Source: Euprymna scolopes (lineage: Eukaryota). Taken from it: 64,000 nt of DNA. The number at the start of each line of letters is the position of its first letter. The first letter of the stretch is position 1. Location of the stretch: the NCBI GenBank assembly GCA_053919585.1, contig CM132785.1; one strand, given 5' to 3'. Below, piece by piece: positions 22,751-37,800 of this stretch. The notes beneath the pieces were generated by a model. The model searched no databases. It was not told the origin of the DNA and worked only from the letters and a program-made list of their open reading frames with translations. The position numbers were made by a program, and so were the translations under genes.

Positions 22751-23160
22751 GTCGCTGTTTCCGATGCTCCCGGCTGGGGACGCGCTGTTTCCGATGCTCC
22801 CGGCTGGGGACGCGCTGTCTCCGATGCTCCCGGCTGGGGGCGCGTTGTCTCCGATGCTGGGGGCGCGTTGTCTCCGATGCTCCCGGCTGGGGGCGCGTTG
22901 TCTCCGATGCTCCCGGCTGGGGGCGCGCTGTCTCCGATGCTCCCGGCTGGGGGCGCGCTGTCTCCGATGCTCCCGGCTGGGGGCGCGCTGTCTCCGATGC
23001 TCCCGGCTGGGGGCGCGCTGTCTCCGATGCTCCCGGCTGGGGGCGCGCTGTCTCCGATGCTCCCGGCTGGGGGCGCGCTGTCTCCGATGCTCCCGGCTGG
23101 GGGCGCGCTGTCTCCGATGCTCCCGGCTGGCGGCGCGCTGTGTCCGATGCTCACCGCTGG
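22751..23160. repeat. GC-rich 30-bp tandem array, 14 units (tccgatgctcccggctgggggcgcgctgtc), unit 4 lacking 7 bp
   Basis: ccgatgct occurs at 22761, 22791, 22821, 22851, then every 30 bp from 22874 to 23144; preceded by (CT)n-AG. Confidence 0.97.
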
Positions 23161-26100: not shown

Positions 26101-28280
26101 TCAGTTTTCATGCAAGAACTATCCTAGGAATTTACTCTGTCTTCAGTGACAAATAGTTGCATACAAATAAGTGATAAGGATAATTTTCCTGCTAACCACC
26201 CTTTCAGTTGCGTGTTAAACATTCAGCAGTTAAGGCTTATCTCGGCAATGGCATACCCCTCACACTTCAAACTGTCTTCCATCACATAAAAATAGGATCA
26301 CAATTATCCTCACTTGTTTTAGAGCGATCTAGTCCATTGATTGCATACAAGATTGTAAGTGGTACTTTAAGACGTTGTTATTCTAGCTACAGCTGTGGAT
26401 GCACATTTTATTTGACTCTGAAACCTGACAAACCAACAGCTCTTTTTTATAGTTATGTAAACAAGTCTGGACTGTTATGTATATTGCCACAAGAACCAAG
26501 ATGATGCAAAATTAGTCGGGTTAAATTGCTCGACTTCAGCCTCTTATATACGCTTGAACTCATCGAGTAGAAGACTTGCTCATTTATTGTATATTATATC
26601 TTCGTTGGTATACAGCGAAAAGTAGACTACATGGAGCACATCAATGAAGCTGGTATATACCTTCTCATCGTCTAACAAAATATGTACACATAACTTAATT
26701 TTGCAGGTCACGTGAAGAAAAAAATAATCGGGTGCCTATATTTAGATCATTAATTCCATTACCCTTTGTAAGATTTTACAATTGACTAGGATAGAATTGT
26801 TCTTAGTGATCAATGGGAGAGTAAGTTTCTTGACTGAGGGTGTTGGATATAGTTAGAAGGTACTGTATAGCTCTTTTATTATGTTCATGCTCCCTTACAA
26901 CGCAGATTCGCCATGTAAGTATAGTATAACATTTCGATCTTAACATACTCTTGCATGCGTAAATCTGTCAAAACAATGGCAATTCTATTTTAGTTAAATG
27001 CGACAGAAATTGATGATTTTATATCGGGACATATGTAAAATTATCCGGTTCTTTAATTTGTGCGTTCACCAAGAATGATACTATTAAAACAATCATGATC
27101 TACCGACATATAATACTCCTCATAATTGTTTTGTTTTTTTTCCGCTCCCGTTCACCGACAAATGAGATTGAACCTAATAATTAACTCCTGTTCGTACTTT
27201 TATCAAAATCCCACCTTGAAATTTTTAAAGTGTCATAGTGAGAGTAAATTTTGCTAGAAGAGATTTTCCAAATAACACGGATTCCTCATCCCAGGGGCCA
27301 TTAGAGGTAAGCTTGCCCAAAAATCGTTCGCTTGTCCGCAATTTTATCCTTAATTTTTTTTAAGTTTTGCACAAACATTAGTCATGGTGAAAATAATTTT
27401 TTTCACTCGTGTAGTGGAACCACCTCATGCTATTTTTCTTTTATTCATTAGATATGTCAATTTTGGCGCCATCTATAGAAGAAACATTGGTTGAAATAAG
27501 TAGATTTAACTTCCATGTTGACAACTTTTACTTTTTGGCAACGGAATTTCCAGACGAATTACAAAAATGGAAAGTTTTTCGAAACCGTATTAGTTAGCTT
27601 ATGACGTAGGTATCGCCAATTTACTTTGATATCTCTTCATTTGCATCGCAGATTACGTTTCGTGAATTTACTTAGATATTTGATTTACATCTAGTATTAC
27701 AATCAAACTATACCAATAGCTAGAGAAATTCTGATTGGTTTCCAAAGAATATGATGATAAAAACTGAAACCTTGATTAACTGTTTCTAAAAAAAAAAAGT
27801 GTAGATATTTTTGTCCCTGTAAATATAAAGCCAGATTAGCATATTCGACAGCGTTACATCAACGCTTTTCACTGCTTGATATAGACACATTTAGCTTACA
27901 CGAGACTAGTTTTAATCTTAAATATGTCCAAATCCGGTGACGGCACGAGTGACTAGTGTCAGTCAGGTGACCTCAGTACTGTTAGATATAATTGTTATTG
28001 TAAGATATACGGTAACCGTGCAACAATATCCGGCATTAGGCTTAGGTAAATAAAATTGTCAATGATCTCCTTTTAAATGAATACATGGTACCTACAAAGG
28101 CGTTTACTATTTCTATATAGTAAGTGTATAACTTAATGATAATTAGTTCGTTGAACTCGCGTTTGAGACTTATATTGTAATGCCGAAGACTAATCACAGC
28201 TCCACGCGCTCTCTACACCGACTGCATCATACGTGTAGCTGCACTGTATCTTTTAATTACAAGTCTTGATGTATTTAAAT

Positions 28281-29702
28281 TGTAACACTAAAGAGAGGCC
28301 ACATCAGACCTGTAGGGTTGATGTGACGTTTCTTTTAGTTGAAAGTAATTTGTTGTTCCCGAACGATAATCGGGTTGAAGGAATAAAAATTATTAATTTT
28401 TATTTGTGAATAAAATCTGAGCTAAGTCTGTTGAAATGACGGCGGCAAGAGTGCCTTTGTAGTGAAAAGTTAAATTACAGACTTCAAAAGCTAAAAAGAA
28501 TGCATAAAATATGTTAGCCAAAATACACAGGCGTTTGATCTCCAATGGCCGAAATCATAGTGTACAGTAGCCGGAGGGGTGGGGATTTCACACCCGCAAT
28601 TGGCAAAACTATGAGCCAAAAAGTTGACCTGGGAATTTGACAAGTTGAAAAGTCGGGTTGTTTTTGATCTAAGAGAAACACACAGTGACTCGGCATCGTG
28701 TTCAGAACAAAGAAGAGGAAAAAAATGAATTGTCCGAAATTTCAAAACAATAAAATAACGTATCGAGAATTGTCATTTGGTGAATCAGGTCGAACGAAAA
28801 AAGGGAATTTATGAAATATTTTTGCTCGGATGGGAAAATGTTTTGTCCGATAAGTTCAAAGCGACAAATGCATTCTTGGTCTTTTGACGTAAACAAAATG
28901 TCTGATATAATAAAATGGCCGACAACCAGAACTTAATTCAAAGATAAACTAAAATCCCTTTGAATTATCAAAGCGAAAGGTGAGATCAATAATTTTAAAA
29001 CAAATAAAATCGCGTAATTTGCTTTAAGGCAAAGGAAAAATACTTTTCCTGGATAGGGGGAAATTCCATTAGTAAGCCAGGGAGGAGTTAATTAATACAA
29101 CGTGTAAGTTGGGCGTTAATTAAGGGAGGAGTCAATCCAATTTTGGAAATGGACCAATGAAAAAGGGCCCTGTCGAAGTATAATCAACTAAGCAGAAAAG
29201 GCCCCGTCGAATTATAATCAAGCAATTGGATTGGTCGATGACGAACATGGGTGTCGTCATCATTCCATAATTGTATTATAAAAGAAATGAAAAATCAGAG
29301 ATTAAGTCAGTAGAACAGAACAGAAGAGCAGTGAAGAACAGAACAGAAGAAGAGAGAGTCCGGAATCAGTCGCGGCAGAATCACCTCTCTCTCCCCCCCC
29401 CTCGCTTGTTGCCTGATAACTCAACGCTTATAACGTGTAGATTACTTAATGAGAATTACGCAAAGTCCGTGATACCGACCAGGTATTTCAACAACAGAAG
29501 CTCAGTTGTAGAACTAACTGCTTGCTTGAATTAATTGTCAACTATATGTACATGATGTAAATACTTTTATGAATTTCCGAAATATATATTATATTAACCA
29601 ACCTCCGGAGTTTTGTTGCTGATGTGCGTTGATCCATATATATGTACATTCTTTATTTGCCAAATGTGACCACGTTCAAAGGTCACACGTCAAAAGCTCA
29701 CA
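28281..29702 (+). repeat. 5' LTR (1422 bp)
   Basis: Starts TGTAACACTAAAG, ends ...AGCTCACA two bases before the PBS; near-identical to 33276-34635. Confidence 0.93.
29150..29312 (+). promoter_or_regulatory. LTR promoter: CCAAT boxes, 35-bp duplicated enhancer-like unit, TATA box and initiator
   Basis: TATAAAAG at 29277-29284, TCAGT initiator at 29307-29311 (A is 32 nt after the TATA T), ccaat/attgg motifs upstream. Confidence 0.65.
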
Positions 29703-29704
29703 TC

Positions 29705-29722
29705 TGGTGCCGTGACAAGGAT
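29705..29722 (+). other. Primer binding site, tRNA-His type
   Basis: TGGTGCCGTGACAAGGAT; the first 12 nt are complementary to the tRNA-His 3' end (..GTCACGGCACCA). Confidence 0.8.
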
Positions 29723-30227
29723 TTGGACCCTGAAAGGCTTCTACGGCACATCAACCGGGAGAAAACGTTTTTGAAGGAAATCATAAACTACAGCACAGCG
29801 TTATTGAATTGAAGGAGAAAACCAACCAGCCACCAAAAACTGCAACGGCTGCTTGCATTGAAGAACCAATCGACAACAAACACAACCACGGCACAACGTT
29901 TTTGAAGGAAACAAACCAGCAACAAGAAACTACGACAACGCGTCATTTGGAAGTGAAAGAAGAAAAAAATCACAAACTGAACAGTATAGACTTTTTTTCT
30001 TGCGCTCTGTGAGTGAGCGTGCAACCCCAAACTACGGGAACTCGACTCTCGGAACCTGAAGCGAAGCGAGATATAGGTGAGACCCTCTTATTTTATTTGT
30101 GATTTTTTGACTTGGGTATTTTTCTTTCCGCAGTGGTTTGGGGGGGGGGGGGGCTGGAGGCATTACTTGTGGAAACAGTGAGAAAGGGATAGACAGGCGA
30201 ATCCCCGTTTGATAAAGTTAGACAAGT

Positions 30228-31112
30228 ATGACGGAGCCGGTGGAACATAAGAGCGAGGCTTTAGGGGGAGCAGAGAGGGTGGTGACGGAGACTAGGACTG
30301 AGAGAGATTGGGCGAGGGAGTTACTCAGACTGCTACAGGAGGCAGCTGAGGAAGTGGCGGAACTGGCTGAGAGGGCAACTAAGGTGTTGTCGGAGGGTAC
30401 CCTGAAAGAAAAGGGGGCAATCCAGGCTAGGCCGGCCAAGGTGCTAGAGAAGGGTAGCACAGAAGGGAAGATAAGGGCAGACAGAGCCCTATCAAACGGC
30501 CGAGAATGGACACTGATCCACGCCACATTATCGGGAGAGGTGAGCACACAAGGACCACATCGGAGGAGGGGGCGCTCGGCCAAGCGGACCCGACAAACCC
30601 CGCCCCAGCCCGAAGTCGAGGAAGTTCGAGAGAGGAAGGTCTCAGATGTCCAACTTTGGGGGATTCAGGAGGATTGGGAGACAGAGGCGGAAGCTGATCC
30701 CAACATAAGAGTTGGGGAGCGCGGCAGGGGATGTGTCACTGCAGCCCCAGGAAAGAAGTACGAGGGCCAACAAGGGGCCCCAATCCGGCCGCTGTCAACC
30801 GACCCCTGATGAAGGTGAGTGGTATTGTTTCACTTACCACCCTGATGGGCACATAACGAAAGGATGTCCCACCAGGAAGGGGGAGCCGCCCGGGGCGGAC
30901 CCCAAAGAAAATGTGCCAAGAACGGACGGATCCCAAGGAGGCCTATTGTTGCCGGCCCCTATGTCCGCGGCGGTGGCAGGATACAGGGAGGACCTCTGAT
31001 GATAGAGGGCCCACTGGCGGGGGGCGCAACTGCCGGAGGGGAAGTTAAGGGAAAAGCGATCGGCAGCGAATTTGTTCGAGGTGCGACCGTCTATATTTGT
31101 CCTAATGAATAA
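30228..31112 (+). pseudogene. gag: Frameshifted gag-like region with a degenerate zinc knuckle and a possible protease relic
   Basis: CFTYHPDGHITKGC at 30826-30867 is CX2CX4HX4C with the second Cys changed to Tyr; downstream GEVKGKAIGSEFVRGATVYI loosely resembles the D(T/S)GA protease context. Confidence 0.7.
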
Positions 31113-31675
31113 GTGAGTACGGGTGGGCAAGGGCTCTGCCTAGGCGTACCACCATCGATGAGTGGGACGGTTTCACACCGGATCCTTTGAAGCTGAAGCA
31201 CCCTAGTACCGAGAATACCCCTGGCAGGGCGGCACGAGGCCAGTGTCCGGAGGAGAGTTGGGGGCGACAGGAAGTTGCGACCCGCCAACTCTATAAGCAT
31301 GAAGAGATGGATTAGAGAGAGAGCGCCCTAGGTCACGATGAAGACAGATTAGTTGGAACTAGGAATAGAACACTAGGGTAAGCTCTAGGACTAAATCTAT
31401 TATGAGAGATACGAGAATAAGTCGACCGAAAGCACGAGTATCGGCCGCTTAGTTAAATGCTAGTTGTCTGGAATACGCATTAGTGGAAAGGAAAATCTAA
31501 CAGGGATCGCATGTTAGGAAGAAGATAAGCACCCTTAACGTTTCAGAAGAAAAGCACAAGAAGGAAGAATTCTTCAGAATATCTTCTCGTTAATTCGAAG
31601 GACGCCAACTGTAGTGGTGTGCACGGGCGGAGACAACCTTCTGTAGCCGTCATAATTGTTGACGGGAGAAACTAT

Positions 31676-32936
31676 AAAATTCGGCAGAAAAGCCGGGAGG
31701 TCTGTCAAGAATGGTTGACTGGAGAATAAGTAGACTTGGAGGTCGATAGAGTGGGCGATAATACCTATGAAAGGTAGGGCTCTGAGAACTCTGGTGATTG
31801 CTGAGGAAAATGTCGAAAGTATCCGACAAGGATTGAGAGCCGTGGAAAACGGGCAGAAGACATTAGCCCAAGTGAATAAAGAAGGGCTCTCCATACTCAG
31901 CATAACGAGAAGGGCAGTAACCGAAAATCGAGTGGCAGTGAACACCACTATCGAACAATTTGAACTCCTGAAAGAAGGAAGTGAGTAAAATTCGGCAGAA
32001 AAGCCGGGAGGTCTCAGTCAAGAATGGTTGACTGGAGAATAAATAGACTTGGAGGTCGACATAGACGGGCGGTAATACCTATCATAAGTAGGGCCCGGGG
32101 AGCTCTGTTTGGTGTGGTTGCTGAGGAAAGTGTCGAAAGTATCCGACAAAGATTGAGAGCCGTGGAAAACGGACAGAAGATATTAGCCTATGTAAATGGA
32201 GCGGTTTCTCCATACTTAATATGAAAATAGACCAACACTTAAGCACCCTTATTGGGCGTTTTGCACGCCTGCAGGAGGAAGTGTTAAAAATTCGGCAGAG
32301 AAGCCGGGAGGTATATCAGTCATAAAGGCTGACTATACAATCTAAGGGGACACAGTGTGTGCCCCTTCCAAAAAAGCCACGGATGGGCATGCGCATTCTA
32401 GGGTTGAATGCCACAAACATGCTCAAGTGATTGAAGTCTGTTGTCTGACCGTCCGCAGTGCATGATTTGAAACCTACGAACCAAAAGAGAAAGATTACGA
32501 GATTAGCTCTATAGGGGTTAGAGCTGAGGTAACTCCGAAAGAAGGTGCTTCTTAGAATAGTCGAAAAGGGACAGTTAAGACTAGAGTAGTCTATCGGAAT
32601 CGCCTGATTATGATTAGACAGCTTACAAAGTCAGTTGGACCACATAATTAAGCAAGAGTCAACGAGCGACCCTCCTAACTTGGTGATGGTGGGGGTCTGA
32701 CGGGTGGAATAGGGGTTATAGCAGGGCTATTAGTGGTGGTGATGTGTTATTTGAAGTGAATGTATGGAATTGAGTGTTTGAAATGCCTCTTGGCGACCCA
32801 TGGCGCTGCGGGGAGCAGCCCTGATCAGGAATCACAAAGGGTCCGCATTAATCTGGCGAAGCTACAGACGAGAGACGAGGAACCCGCCCCAAATCCATCC
32901 CTACGACAAGAAGCTGAACCTACAGAATATTTTTAA
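31676..32936 (+). pseudogene. env: env-like (class I fusion protein) pseudogene
   Basis: Furin-type RHRR at 32057-32068 followed by fusion-peptide-like AVIPIISRARGALFGV and a heptad segment; LDSLQSQLDHII; TM-like LTGGIGVIAGLLVVVMCYLK near 32700-32756; in-frame tail to TAA at 32936; broken by stops and shifts. Confidence 0.7.
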
Positions 32937-33261
32937 ACACTATTAAGTGATGTCAATGTAGGACTAATTGCATGCTTAGTGTTTCAAAAGGAAGAAAAAA
33001 AAGACACTTTTCACTATTACCGATTTTGTTACACGAACTTTGTACTTATGAAACCACCACTACGAACTGTTATTGAACAGGCTGAGTTAAGGCAGTAGCC
33101 ATTTATATGAACTTTCAACTTCTGCGTGATTATTTGTTTTGCATGTAATTCAGCAAATTCTCGCTTCCAGAGTAGGCCAGAATTGTGTTATGAGATGAGA
33201 GAATCTCTTTGAGTGTTAACGGACATGGGGCGCCGTTATCCGGTGGAGAACGTCGCCCTAT

Positions 33262-33275
33262 GGGGGGGGGGCGAA
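33262..33275 (+). other. Polypurine tract
   Basis: GGGGGGGGGGCGAA immediately before the 3' LTR TG. Confidence 0.85.
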
Positions 33276-34881
33276 TGTAACACTAAAGAGAGGCCACATC
33301 AGACCTGTAGGGTTGATGTGACGTTTCTTTTAGTTGAAAGTAATTTGTTGTTCCCGGACGATAATCGGGTTGAAGGAATAAAAATTATTAATTTTTATTT
33401 GTGAATAAAATCTGAGCTAAGTCTGTTGAAATGACGGCGGCAAGAGTGCCTTTGTAGTGAAAAGTTAAATTACAGACTTCAAAAGCTAAAAAGAATGCAT
33501 AAAATATGTTAGCCAAAATACACAGGCGTTTGATCTCCAATGGCTGAAATCATAGTGTACAGTAGCCGGAGGGGTGGGGATTTCACACCCGCAATTGGCA
33601 AAACTATGAGCCAAAAAGTTGACCTGGGAATTTGACAAGTTGAAAAGTCGGGTTGTTTTTGATCTAAGAGAAACACACGCAGTGACTCGGCATTGTGTTC
33701 AGAACAAAGAAGAGGAAAAAAATGAATTGTCCGAAATTTCAAAACAATAAAATAACGTATCGAGAATTGTCATTTGGTGAATCAGGTCGAACGAAAAAAG
33801 GGAATTTATGAAATATTTTTGCTCGGATGGGAAAATGTTTTGTCCGATAAGTTCAAAGCAACAAATGCATTCTTGCTCTTTTGACGTAAACAAAATGTCT
33901 GATATAATAAAATGGCCGACAACCAGAACTTAATTCAAAGATAAACTAAAATCCCTTTGAATTATCAAAGCGAAATGGGAGATCAATAATTTTAAAACAA
34001 ATAAAATCGCGTAATTTTCTTTAAGGCAAAGGAAAAATACTTTTCCTGGATAGGGGGAAATTCCATTAGTAAGCCAGGGAGGAGTTAATTAATACAACGT
34101 GTAAGTTGGGCGTTAATTAAGGGAGGAGTCAATCCAATTTTTGAAATGGACCAATGAAAAAGGGCCCTGTCTAAGTATAATCAACCAATGAGAAAAGGCC
34201 CCGTCGAATTATAATCAAGCAATTTGATTGGTCGATGACGAACATGGGTGTCGTCATCATTCCATAATTGTATTATAAAAGAAATGAAAAATCAGAGATT
34301 AAGTCAGTAGAACAGAAGAGCAGTGAAGAACAGAATCAGAATCACCTCTCTCTCTCCCCCCCCTCGCTTGTTGCCTGATAACTCAACGCTTATAACGTGT
34401 AGATTACTTAATGAGAATTACGCAAAGTCCGCGATACCGACCAGGTATTTCAACAACAGAAGCTCAGTTGTAGAACTAACTGCTTGCTTGAATTAATTGT
34501 CAACTATATGTACATGCTATAAATACTTCTTTTATGAATTTCCGAAATATATATCATATTAACCAACCTCCGGAGTTTTGTTGCTGATGTGCGTTGATCC
34601 ATATATATGTACATTCTTTATTTGCCATTTGTGACACCGTATCCGTCAACGAACACCCAGGATAACTAGACGATCCACGGAGAACAGGCCTTGAGGACCG
34701 AGCATCCGAGAAGAATCCCCAACGCCTTAACGAAGAACTCACTGGGTGACGCGACGTACTAACGGTTGGCAGACCTGGTTTCCCAGTCGACATATCATAA
34801 CTGTACCGACCAGGGTGCAGATCATAACTGGGCCGCGATCAGGGATCAAGGACGTGTAAGGCCATACGCTGAAAGGTCACA
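33276..34881 (+). repeat. 3' LTR (1606 bp)
   Basis: TGTAACAC...AAAGGTCACA followed by AAAT. Confidence 0.9.
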
Positions 34882-37800
34882 AAATCATGTTACTTTATTT
34901 TATGATAACGAGTTTATCAAATTTCCTTTTTATAATTGTATATAGAATTCACGCCAGACCTAGCTTGAAGCTACTTGATATTAAGAATTAAAATACTATT
35001 TCAAGGTCAAAACCTTGCCAACAAATTCTAGATTCTCGGCTAGAAAATAGCGATTCCTCTTATCAAAAGCATGGTTCAAGGGGATTAATTGACAAACCGA
35101 AAGTTAATCAATTAGTAGTCCATTCCGTGAGTCTGACTTAAATTAGTTTAGTGAATTTATTGGAAAAGTCAAATTCACTATACGTATTTTAAAATGCATG
35201 ACTCGCCTGAAGACTGCTCATAGAAGTTGAAAACGTTTGCGACGATAAGTTTATTTTTTACACTCGAACAGAACGTTCGCACATTGGCACGCTAAAATGT
35301 CAAACACGGATCGCAAGAGAAACAAATATCCTTCTATTCAATTAAACATGTGTATTATAATAGAAAAATGCGATCATGAAGTTATATGGTTAAACTTAAA
35401 CATGGAAGGGAAAAGGACAATAAATCTAGTAAAAATGAATTTATAGTTTAAAATATTGCATCATTAAGAAATGATTGTTAAATTGAATTTATTAGAATGC
35501 CTTGTCCTTTTTTTTCATGTTTAAGCTTAACCATATTTTCATGCTCGCAACTTTGATGTAATACATGATTTCTGCAGCCCTCCAGTAAATGAAGTTGTTT
35601 GTTTAATTTCAGTCTATTTTGCCACCATAAACATAAGTAAATCAATGTACGGCACTCGTCTGCTTTCATTCTCTCCGTTTCACTTATTTTTTTTTCGAGA
35701 GCGCTGCATTAATACCAACACTAGTCGCCGATGTGGTTGCTATAGAAACCAGACAGAAAAACGTTCATTTTCTTTTTTTTTTTTTACTATTTTGGGCATC
35801 AGAAAATTCATAAATTTTTACCAAACGAAAATTGACTTTTTTTTTCAGAACACAGCTGTAATAATTGTTTGAAATTTGGTCGAAAAATGAGTGAGCGGTG
35901 AAGTTTTAAGGCGGTTTTCAATGACTAAATCTGTCACTTAACCATGCATGCATGAGCGGGTGCCTATTCTTAGTATCTATACCGCTAGTCCTCAATACGT
36001 GAGTAAATATAGGATTATTTAGAAAATGTGGAGAAATTAAGCTACATAATTATTTTACGTTTGATCCTTTAGTATTCGTCAAGCTATTGCATGGAATTGA
36101 TGGTATTGCATCTTATAGCCACATGATACCGAGTTTGCTACTTATCAGATCTTTTAATACATTTATAAACATTGTGTGACTAATAGAATCTGATTGACTA
36201 ATTAGCAAACACAATGCTATGTTTGTCTACAACACGTGGAAGCATCAAATCCATGCAATACTGATGGATTCTAACGTGAGTAAAACAGAAAATTCATGGA
36301 AACATAAGTGCCATATTTTCTAAAACTTGTATGCCTAAGCACTAGGATAATACCAGTACTAGAGAGATTTTAAATATTTAAGAACATTAATTTTAATAGG
36401 TCCACTTTTGTAAAGTAGTTTCGCTAGCGCTCACATAATAGTAACGTTTGTTAAAAAAATCTGCCAATAATACTGACAGTTTCCTAGAATACATATTCCT
36501 ACTGTATACCAGTCTATGAAATGGAACTTTGCGTGGGCGAGTTCGTTCCCTCTGGATTCCTAAACGGCTGGACCGATTTCAGTAAATTTTCAACAAATGT
36601 GCTTTATGCGCCTAGCAGTGTATTTAGATAGGTTTTGTATTGGTATGCATTCGATAAGTATCTACAATGGAAAAAAATCCGAACCAAGGGACGGGTGATT
36701 TTGATTAAATTTTACGACTTATACAGCCTAACCTAAGTGCATTTGAGAAGCTTTATCGCACAAGCAGAAAGATACTACATATAAAATATACAGTAGGTTC
36801 TTTAATATGACCGGCGCTTTAGAGCACCTACTTTTTATTGATACATTGCAATATAGATTACAATTTATTGTAGACTAAATAACTAACTGAAGGGAGAATT
36901 GAAAAATACACGATTTTATTTCTATTTCGATGACTATAAACATGGTAGGGAGAAACGATATAATTTGGCTTTAATATCTTTAATAAGAGCGCCAGTTCAT
37001 GGGGACGCATGCCCTATTTTCCAAAGTTCACAAAACCGTGCCAGTGTTAATCCGCATGTTCCATACGATATATTTACCCAAATTCAGATTCGTTCGCTGG
37101 GTTATCCTGTAAAGGTAATTGCTGCACATTTCGGCGTTTAAGACAACCCTTAGTTTTAAAAACGTCCTCTTTAAAAACCAATATTTCATAAGATACCGGG
37201 TATTGCAATCTCTAGCCTAGGCCAAACAATTTCGTGGTTTAGTATTCGTTTTCTACAAATTATATCATAAATATATGAAAATTTGCTTCAATTTTGTATA
37301 TCGACAGTCGCCTTTTACGCCGAAAAATACGATATATATTAAGACACGTGTTCATTCTTTGCTGCACTGACATAAAAAAAAAAACTTATTAGATTTGGCT
37401 TTCAGCTTGGATGTATTTTATTTTATTCCTGTCATTTTTAATTTTTTTTTTCAATATAAGTCTAAATGAAAATACCATTACCAGTATAGCAACCACTGTG
37501 TGTGTGTATTAATAATAGGTCTATTTACTCTTGAACTTTATTAAATAAACACTGTATCAATTATCCGGATTTATTCTACAATTACACGACAATGTAGTCG
37601 ATAAGAATCGATTAGCGCTTGCACATTTATTCCTCATAACTACAAGCGAATTCCATATTCAGTTTCTGACTACGAACTTCGATTGGAGTCCTGACGAAAC
37701 ATGAACATGTATCGATTCACGTAGACTAATTACAATGAATCGAAACACTGATTTTACCTTTTATTTATGTCAACATTCTATTACACAAATCTTATCTCCG

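Follow-up and report, generated by a model that had tools for sequence, protein, structure and literature searches.

How can a retrotransposon of the long terminal repeat (LTR) type that lacks pol have reached its present site, and with whose enzymes? This question is raised by an element at positions 28281-34881 (+ strand) of a 64,000-nucleotide stretch of Euprymna scolopes DNA (assembly GCA_053919585.1, contig CM132785.1), the whole of which is referred to here as the window. Judged from its sequence, the element, which an earlier note had described as a recent insertion with relics of gag and env, is very probably a non-autonomous satellite of an errantivirus-like Gypsy family and not a complete errantivirus. 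This view is taken because the element keeps its cis signals, lacks pol, shares its structure with sister copies, has pol-bearing relatives with an F-type env and has a mosaic interior. The explanation as a whole, in which a pol-less multi-copy family would be served by related gag-pol-env elements, also appears probable.

Absence of pol and the pol-less sister copies

When the family's own pol was used as a tblastn query against the window, only noise was obtained (reverse transcriptase (RT), E 0.16; RNase H, 0.12; integrase, 0.54; protease, 0.025), and the family's gag and env matched the interior of the element at E 1e-26 to 1e-35. Pfam gave nothing above the cut-off in ten open reading frames of the window or in six read-through frames, a negative that carries little weight because gag and env were missed as well. 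The absence of pol motifs from the interior, as claimed in the earlier note, is thus borne out by the more sensitive family queries.

A search of the 5.9-Gb genome with the interior yielded 174 candidates, of which 40 were scored and 39 stretches, representing 38 loci, were fetched; the query favours pol-less matches, and the counts show multiplicity rather than proportions. Two LTRs, whole or partial, enclose a shortened gag (mini-gag) and env relics at 19 of the 38 loci, gag-protease only is found at 3, and the remaining loci are fragments. The family RT occurs in none of the 39 stretches, a single 35% match belonging to an unrelated element. The target-site duplications (TSDs) of the copies are 4 bp long and differ in sequence among loci, so that the copies are separate insertions, and the same defective structure is therefore present at many independent sites, as expected of a non-autonomous family. 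A search with the LTR gave 991 candidates. These comparisons support the view that the loss of pol and the fragmentation of env predate the window insertion. No pol remnants were found and the deletion is not unique to the window copy, and the proposal of a non-autonomous, multi-copy element tied to an env-bearing invertebrate Gypsy lineage stands.

Long terminal repeats and cis signals

All features of the element lie on the + strand, except the two TSDs (28277-28280 and 34882-34885), which have no strand. The LTRs have TG...CA ends, the primer-binding site (PBS) for tRNA-His(GTG) is at 29705-29722, and the polypurine tract (PPT) is at about 33260-33275; together with the short TSD these are structural features of Ty3/Gypsy elements, and the interior between the LTRs is 3573 bp long. 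TSD, PBS and PPT had been reported as intact, and all were found, the PBS with one mismatch in the window copy. The PBS of the family matches the host tRNA-His(GTG) genes (12 of the 12 loci scanned, from C2 and C3; 449 pattern matches). Arrays of tRNA-His 3′ ends were also observed on C40 from about 48.03 Mb, with a period of about 284 bp, and on C3 at 12.68-12.99 Mb.

Both LTRs are of a type designated A. Their cores align over 1345 columns with 19 substitutions (8 transitions and 11 transversions) and 5 insertions or deletions (indels), corresponding to 98.6% identity and a Kimura two-parameter (K2P) distance of 0.0143; the estimate made by eye, about 20 substitutions and about 98% identity over about 1.35 kb, was close, and the unequal length of the two LTRs was overlooked. 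The 5′ LTR (28281-29702; 1422 bp) stops 41 nt past the core in a short U5 end not seen in other copies, and the full-length 3′ LTR (33276-34881; 1606 bp) has there instead a 255-nt U5 block (34627-34881), which is present in both LTRs of sister copies. This block was considered as a separate solo LTR and rejected as such, because it continues directly from the LTR core at the loci that were read and in the two LTRs of sister copies. The short 5′ end was likewise rejected as a subfamily mark, having one exact match in the genome and occurring at 1 of the 30 loci read out of 38 with the same junction motif. A U5 insert of 63-70 nt that resembles a second LTR end was observed in 38 LTRs genome-wide, 30 of which were read, and the 5′ LTR of the window stops at this place.

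A second hypervariable zone lies beside the U5 end (34852-34872). In 5 of 16 copies the two LTRs disagree at five or more positions within the last 24 nt of U5, as they do in the window copy; gene conversion may account for such discordant ends, as may a plus-strand transfer that drew on a second RNA template. Descent of the two LTR cores from different parents was rejected, because 16 of the 19 differences are private, the start-site strings described below begin alike and only the U5 end disagrees. That the U5 ends of one insertion may derive from different templates (5 of 16 pairs) calls for caution in LTR dating. Outside the element, a GC-rich 30-bp tandem repeat (13.8 copies, 94% matches) was observed at 22753-23160.

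Pol-bearing relatives

Candidate helpers were sought with three queries, namely RT DNA, an env relic and the gag-protease frame of a sister copy. Of 405 candidates 40 were scored, and 19 loci among these had RT at no less than 84%. The 16 of these that were fetched have LTRs of type A (2), B (8) and C (6). In relative L120, pol has the order protease-RT-RNase H-integrase that is characteristic of Ty3/Gypsy and that the window copy, without pol, cannot display, and an env matching Baculo_F follows. The LTRs of L120 are 92-93% identical to those of the window, and L120/L121 and L191 together provide pol-bearing partners with the LTR type of the window (91-93% identity), the same PBS and the same PPT. 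The env of the relatives matches Baculo_F above the cut-off (E 9e-14, 8e-9 and 7e-14) and a fusion protein in the PDB at E 6e-4. An env with homology to Baculovirus F thus lies downstream of pol in the relatives, as in errantiviruses, and the env relics of the window are 67-81% identical to this F-type env. The nearest database proteins are 54-68% identical and mostly unnamed, and the search for env homologues gave two unnamed proteins.

An intact set of gag, pol and env was not encountered: the window copy has no pol, and all 19 pol-bearing loci are broken. None of the 16 fetched loci has a continuous gag-pol frame (the longest is 1192 amino acids (aa)), and the three unfetched loci have stops in gag-protease. 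Of what the earlier note had expected from a genome-wide search, same-structure copies and gag-pol-env relatives were therefore recovered, the intact helper was not.

Probable exchange of modules between helpers and satellites

LTR types A and B can be aligned over only about 700 of 1606 nt (77-89% identity), and types A and C over about 220 nt. RT DNA nevertheless stays at 90-99% identity across the three types, and A helpers agree with B helpers at 95-98% in gag and env. Type-B satellites combine a mini-gag that is 91-94% identical to that of type C with a B-type env. In an env tree of 42 rows and 274 columns, A helpers nest among B helpers.

The window copy is itself a mosaic. Its leader (29723-30227) is 82-97% identical to that of type-A pol-bearing copies, and its leader and env tail together are 82-97% like type-A helpers. 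Mini-gag and spacer are 71-79% like type-C satellites; the spacer (31000-31610), which contains no pol domain, is 76-79% identical to type-C satellites and, from 31233, 77% identical to a type-C pol-bearing copy. Env relic 1 (31755-31976), from the region after the cleavage site, is closer to the A/B env group. The stretch 31978-32540 is 84-88% like type C and includes env relic 2 (32000-32197), with the furin-like site and the fusion-peptide region, which nests among type-C relics in the env tree, relic 1 falling outside them. At 32273-32334 lies the start of a third, partial copy of an env repeat of about 310 bp, and env relic 3 (32614-32933), comprising the membrane anchor and the tail, has 90-91% DNA identity to type-A pol-bearing copies. 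LTR type thus appears incongruent with interior type, as judged by identities and the env tree. Three barely alignable LTR types on a nearly identical pol and on common satellite interiors point to module exchange, for which template switching between co-packaged RNAs is an established route (PMC6894440, PMC5668417).

Further satellite designs

The family includes three satellite designs: mini-gag with env relics, as in the window; mini-gag with a long env; and gag-protease only. The type-B pol-less loci L136, L146, L203 and L205 (on C8, C41, C25 and C24, respectively) carry a mini-gag and a near full-length F-type env region, which in L136 holds a 575-aa open stretch; such copies represent a second satellite design that may once have supplied envelope. 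In the third design, seen at L043, L141, L140, L062, L064/L065, L157 and L158, gag-protease runs in frame into roughly the final 70 residues of pol, with open frames of 744 aa (L043) and 743 aa (L141), and there is no RT, RNase H or integrase core. L158 also harbors, at 14-2514, a 131-bp leader unit repeated in tandem about 19 times within a gag-protease element. In L068 (3958-5598), a Tc1-type transposase (DDE_3, HTH_Tnp_Tc3_2) shares one 547-aa open frame with mini-gag. Four LTR matches of equal score, mostly 54 kb apart (L071-L074; C5, 60.53-60.74 Mb), probably represent a segmental duplication.

A copy-specific string at the predicted start site

A TATA box and an initiator-like motif (29277-29311) predict a transcription start at about 29309, with the same spacing in LTR types B and C. 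About 30 nt past the TATA box (at 29277 and 34274 in the two LTRs), behind the initiator-like motif, begins a string of short modules, each with AG at its end, that is 41-82 nt long in total. This string occupies 29307-29378 and 34304-34339 in the window copy. Among type-A LTRs, 63 loci have 63 distinct strings (known duplicates were removed beforehand, and loci unmatched by the search pattern were not counted). Of 1953 between-locus pairs, 6 have the same arrangement; of 17 sister copies, 14 have one arrangement in both LTRs, and in all 17 the two strings are equal in length. The corresponding figures are 0 of 91 and 5 of 7 for type B, and 1 of 136 and 4 of 6 for type C; the spacing between TATA box and string is similar in all three types despite their differing TATA contexts.

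No other 60-nt segment of the LTR varies as much as the string, for which 0.00 of pairs are alike as against a median of 0.50. Site diversity climbs from below 0.3 to above 0.5 at 34305-34308, the left edge of the string, and the variation is polar and greatest at the 5′ side, the best partner sharing a suffix of 45 nt and a prefix of 13 nt. Adjacent identical modules are in excess (56 observed vs 22.9 ± 4.2 in shuffles), and the strings are 72% purine with many AG units. Because the string is common to the LTRs of one copy and different between copies, it was made before integration, and where it lies is suggestive of priming out of register during the first strand transfer of reverse transcription. 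An origin of the string at this step is the reading to which we incline, by a narrow preference. Reverse transcriptases are known to be capable of two-base clamping in vitro (PMC3035444).

A broader and more tentative proposal is that the LTRs form a polar replication log, in which RT would add or remove a module of a few bases at the RNA 5′ end in most cycles. If the string is written at the first strand transfer, it would be a natural per-insertion tag from which replication cycles could be counted from genome data alone, it would tell retrotransposition from duplication, and strand-transfer errors could be studied from genomes. If the LTRs are indeed a replication log, the descent and the co-packaging partners of every insertion would be recorded in the roughly thousand LTRs of this genome, and the module-swapping network of helpers and satellites would be exposed in a mollusc errantivirus-like family.

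The mini-gag

The mini-gag of the window copy (30228-30999) has an internal deletion, a frameshift near 30705 and a frame stop at 30809. Of 23 type-A copies, 10 have an uninterrupted frame between the start codon and a common stop, and the replicating lineage carried an open frame of 258 or 325 codons. The sole large indel shared among type-A mini-gags is 201 nt long and in frame, and it removes the zinc knuckle in 15 of 23 copies, including that of the window. Frameshifts, including that near 30705, are private, with the exception of one 1-nt column in two copies. Over the stretch examined in types B and C, no more than 2 or 3 of 11 copies keep the mini-gag open, and the shared indels there include several that are out of frame. 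We read this as retention by the lineage of a translatable mini-gag frame, without evidence of a working protein; what has probably been maintained in the open mini-gag is the reading frame rather more than the sequence of the protein. The earlier claim that coding decay preceded the last transposition thus applies to the loss of pol and the fragmentation of env and does not extend to the gag frameshift, which is private to the window copy and absent from the ten sisters with an open frame.

Proposed mechanism and alternative explanations

In the favoured mechanism, satellite RNA was likely packaged by the proteins of related gag-pol-env elements, which would also have reverse-transcribed and integrated it. 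Co-packaging with helper RNA would permit template switching, which would build the mosaic interior and exchange LTR types between the interiors of helpers and satellites. During the first strand transfer, the end of the cDNA would re-prime out of register on short AG microhomologies where R begins, so that small modules would be gained or lost, and each insertion would acquire its own string, copied into both LTRs.

It is extremely improbable that the element was complete until insertion and lost pol and decayed afterwards. The private gag frameshift and the 16 private LTR substitutions would be expected in that case, yet the account is already refuted by the presence of the same pol-less structure between different TSDs at half of the loci fetched, and the mini-gag protein is only 36-40% identical to helper Gag while the LTRs are 92% identical. 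Evolution of LTR types without exchange, by rapid change of U3 in satellites that co-diverged with their helpers, is distinctly unlikely. U3 does vary within families, as reported for crapaud (PMC10787394), but A and B helpers are 95-99% identical in gag, RT and env when most of their LTR sequence is unalignable, and type-B satellites unite a type-C-like mini-gag with a B-type env. The mini-gag might instead be a functional accessory or interfering capsid protein that satellites give to particles, as its open frame, its in-frame shared deletion and the same frame-ending C-terminus in types A, B and C would allow; most of the capsid region is deleted, however, the knuckle is lost in most type-A copies, codon-level constraint is weak and the RNA runs give no evidence of expression, and such a function is unlikely. 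A real, if doubtful, possibility is that the satellite explanation holds and the string is an ordinary unstable AG-rich repeat, changed by chromosomal slippage or by slippage during internal copying, with no tie to strand transfer. Its purine-rich, AG-unit composition and the indels between the two LTRs of some copies, the window copy included, agree with this; equal string length within all 17 type-A pairs when loci range from 41 to 82 nt, the sharp left edge at a similar TATA distance in three different promoters, and the polar variation do not.

Several points weigh against the satellite and strand-transfer model as set out above. Mobilisation in trans, while likely, is read from the anatomy of the elements, and the sister copies come from 40 of 174 candidates scored after a query biased toward pol-less matches. 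The env tree rests on 274 columns and has strong support on 8 of its 39 inner branches. Selection on the mini-gag appears weak (omega about 0.5-0.6, uncorrected); the third-position share between lineages is 0.41 (p 0.03-0.06), as against 0.42 (p 0.15) in a non-coding control, and shared variants within type A show no third-position excess. The start site is a prediction, and the RNA reads show no accumulation of starts. The strings of the two window LTRs differ by 5 and 31 nt, the 3′ copy being the shorter, and within-copy exceptions amount to 2 of 7 pairs in type B and 2 of 6 in type C; because of these within-copy changes, plain repeat slippage also contributes.

Insertion age and expression

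In 17 type-A satellites the distance between paired LTRs has a median of 0.0117 and a range of 0.005-0.028. It is 0.011 in each of the two type-A helpers and lies between 0.005 and 0.053 in a further 14 pairs, the tandem duplicate L065 (distance 0.0012) being excluded. From these ranges, satellites and helpers were mobile over the same period. Among 32 pairs none is below 0.005 and none is identical, and there is no sign of current activity of satellites or helpers. The description of the window element as recently inserted holds only in a relative sense, since 11 of the 17 satellite pairs are closer than its 0.0143. In 1 of 4 runs, one contig covers the left junction of the insertion, with an overlap of only 29 nt, and no empty site was present among the matches listed.

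Matches to the element in three raw RNA runs amounted to 145-158 reads per 10-18 million, on both strands and mainly in the LTR, and 3-11 of them were at least 99% alike to it. No pile-up of starts was found in these runs and the level is that of background, so that the reads are no evidence of specific transcription. With all 19 pol-bearing loci broken and RNA at background, the suggestion that a helper may still be active finds no support. Over the U5-PBS junction, 15, 5 and 2 reads (runs X24, X23 and X21, respectively), mostly in one orientation, were judged by eye to be of type C, a weak hint that some type-C copy is transcribed.

Comparison with known systems

Non-autonomous LTR elements that keep their cis signals, have lost pol and are mobilised in trans include VL30/ETn, LARD and TR-GAG. 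The window element resembles them in keeping cis signals without pol, its own trans-mobilisation being inferred; it differs in that its interior recombines gag and env pieces of the helper family and in that the mini-gag is open in many copies. A LARD is defined by a non-coding interior, which the open mini-gag in 10 of 23 copies contradicts. In soybean, a partnership of autonomous and non-autonomous elements with LTR swapping was reportedly described by Du and colleagues (2010, Plant Cell), so that satellites and LTR swapping as such are already known elsewhere. As in that partnership, satellites and helpers here have common LTR types, apparently exchanged; unlike the plant system, the present family combines an F-type env with three LTR types and no fewer than three satellite designs. 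One genome thus holds three designs together with apparent LTR exchange, and outside insects the satellites of env-bearing Gypsy elements seem to have received little description.

For the string, the 5′ tags of HeT-A, which is a non-LTR element, are a precedent for the addition of short modules at an RNA 5′ end. Strand transfer by clamping provides a comparable biochemical route, established in vitro with retroviral enzymes (PMC3035444). Searches of the open-access literature found no description of such a string in LTRs, nor of such satellites in a mollusc errantivirus. LTR subfamilies on common interiors are already known from crapaud, a Gypsy family of Podospora in which 7 of 150 copies have unlike LTRs (PMC10787394). 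The present family is similar in having several LTR types on common interiors and a few copies with unlike 5′ and 3′ LTRs; crapaud is fungal and has no env, and the passages at hand mention neither a satellite class nor a start-site string (PMC10787394).

The closest known counterparts are the 'ancient errantiviruses' with F-type env reported in molluscs by a survey of intact gag-pol-env copies (eLife 2026, PMC13524379). In that survey 15 cephalopod assemblies were screened; no row of its master table contains the word Cephalopoda, and the terms 'non-autonomous', 'nonautonomous' and 'lacking pol' are absent from its main text (PMC13524379). In insect errantiviruses the PBS corresponds mainly to tRNA-Ser, -Lys or -Leu, unlike the tRNA-His of the present family (PMC13524379). 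Whereas the survey describes intact copies, the family in Euprymna includes pol-less satellites; its pol-bearing members nevertheless share with 'ancient errantiviruses' the Gypsy order of pol followed by an F-type env with a furin-like site, a fusion peptide and a membrane anchor (PMC13524379), and by these features the putative helper fits that group.

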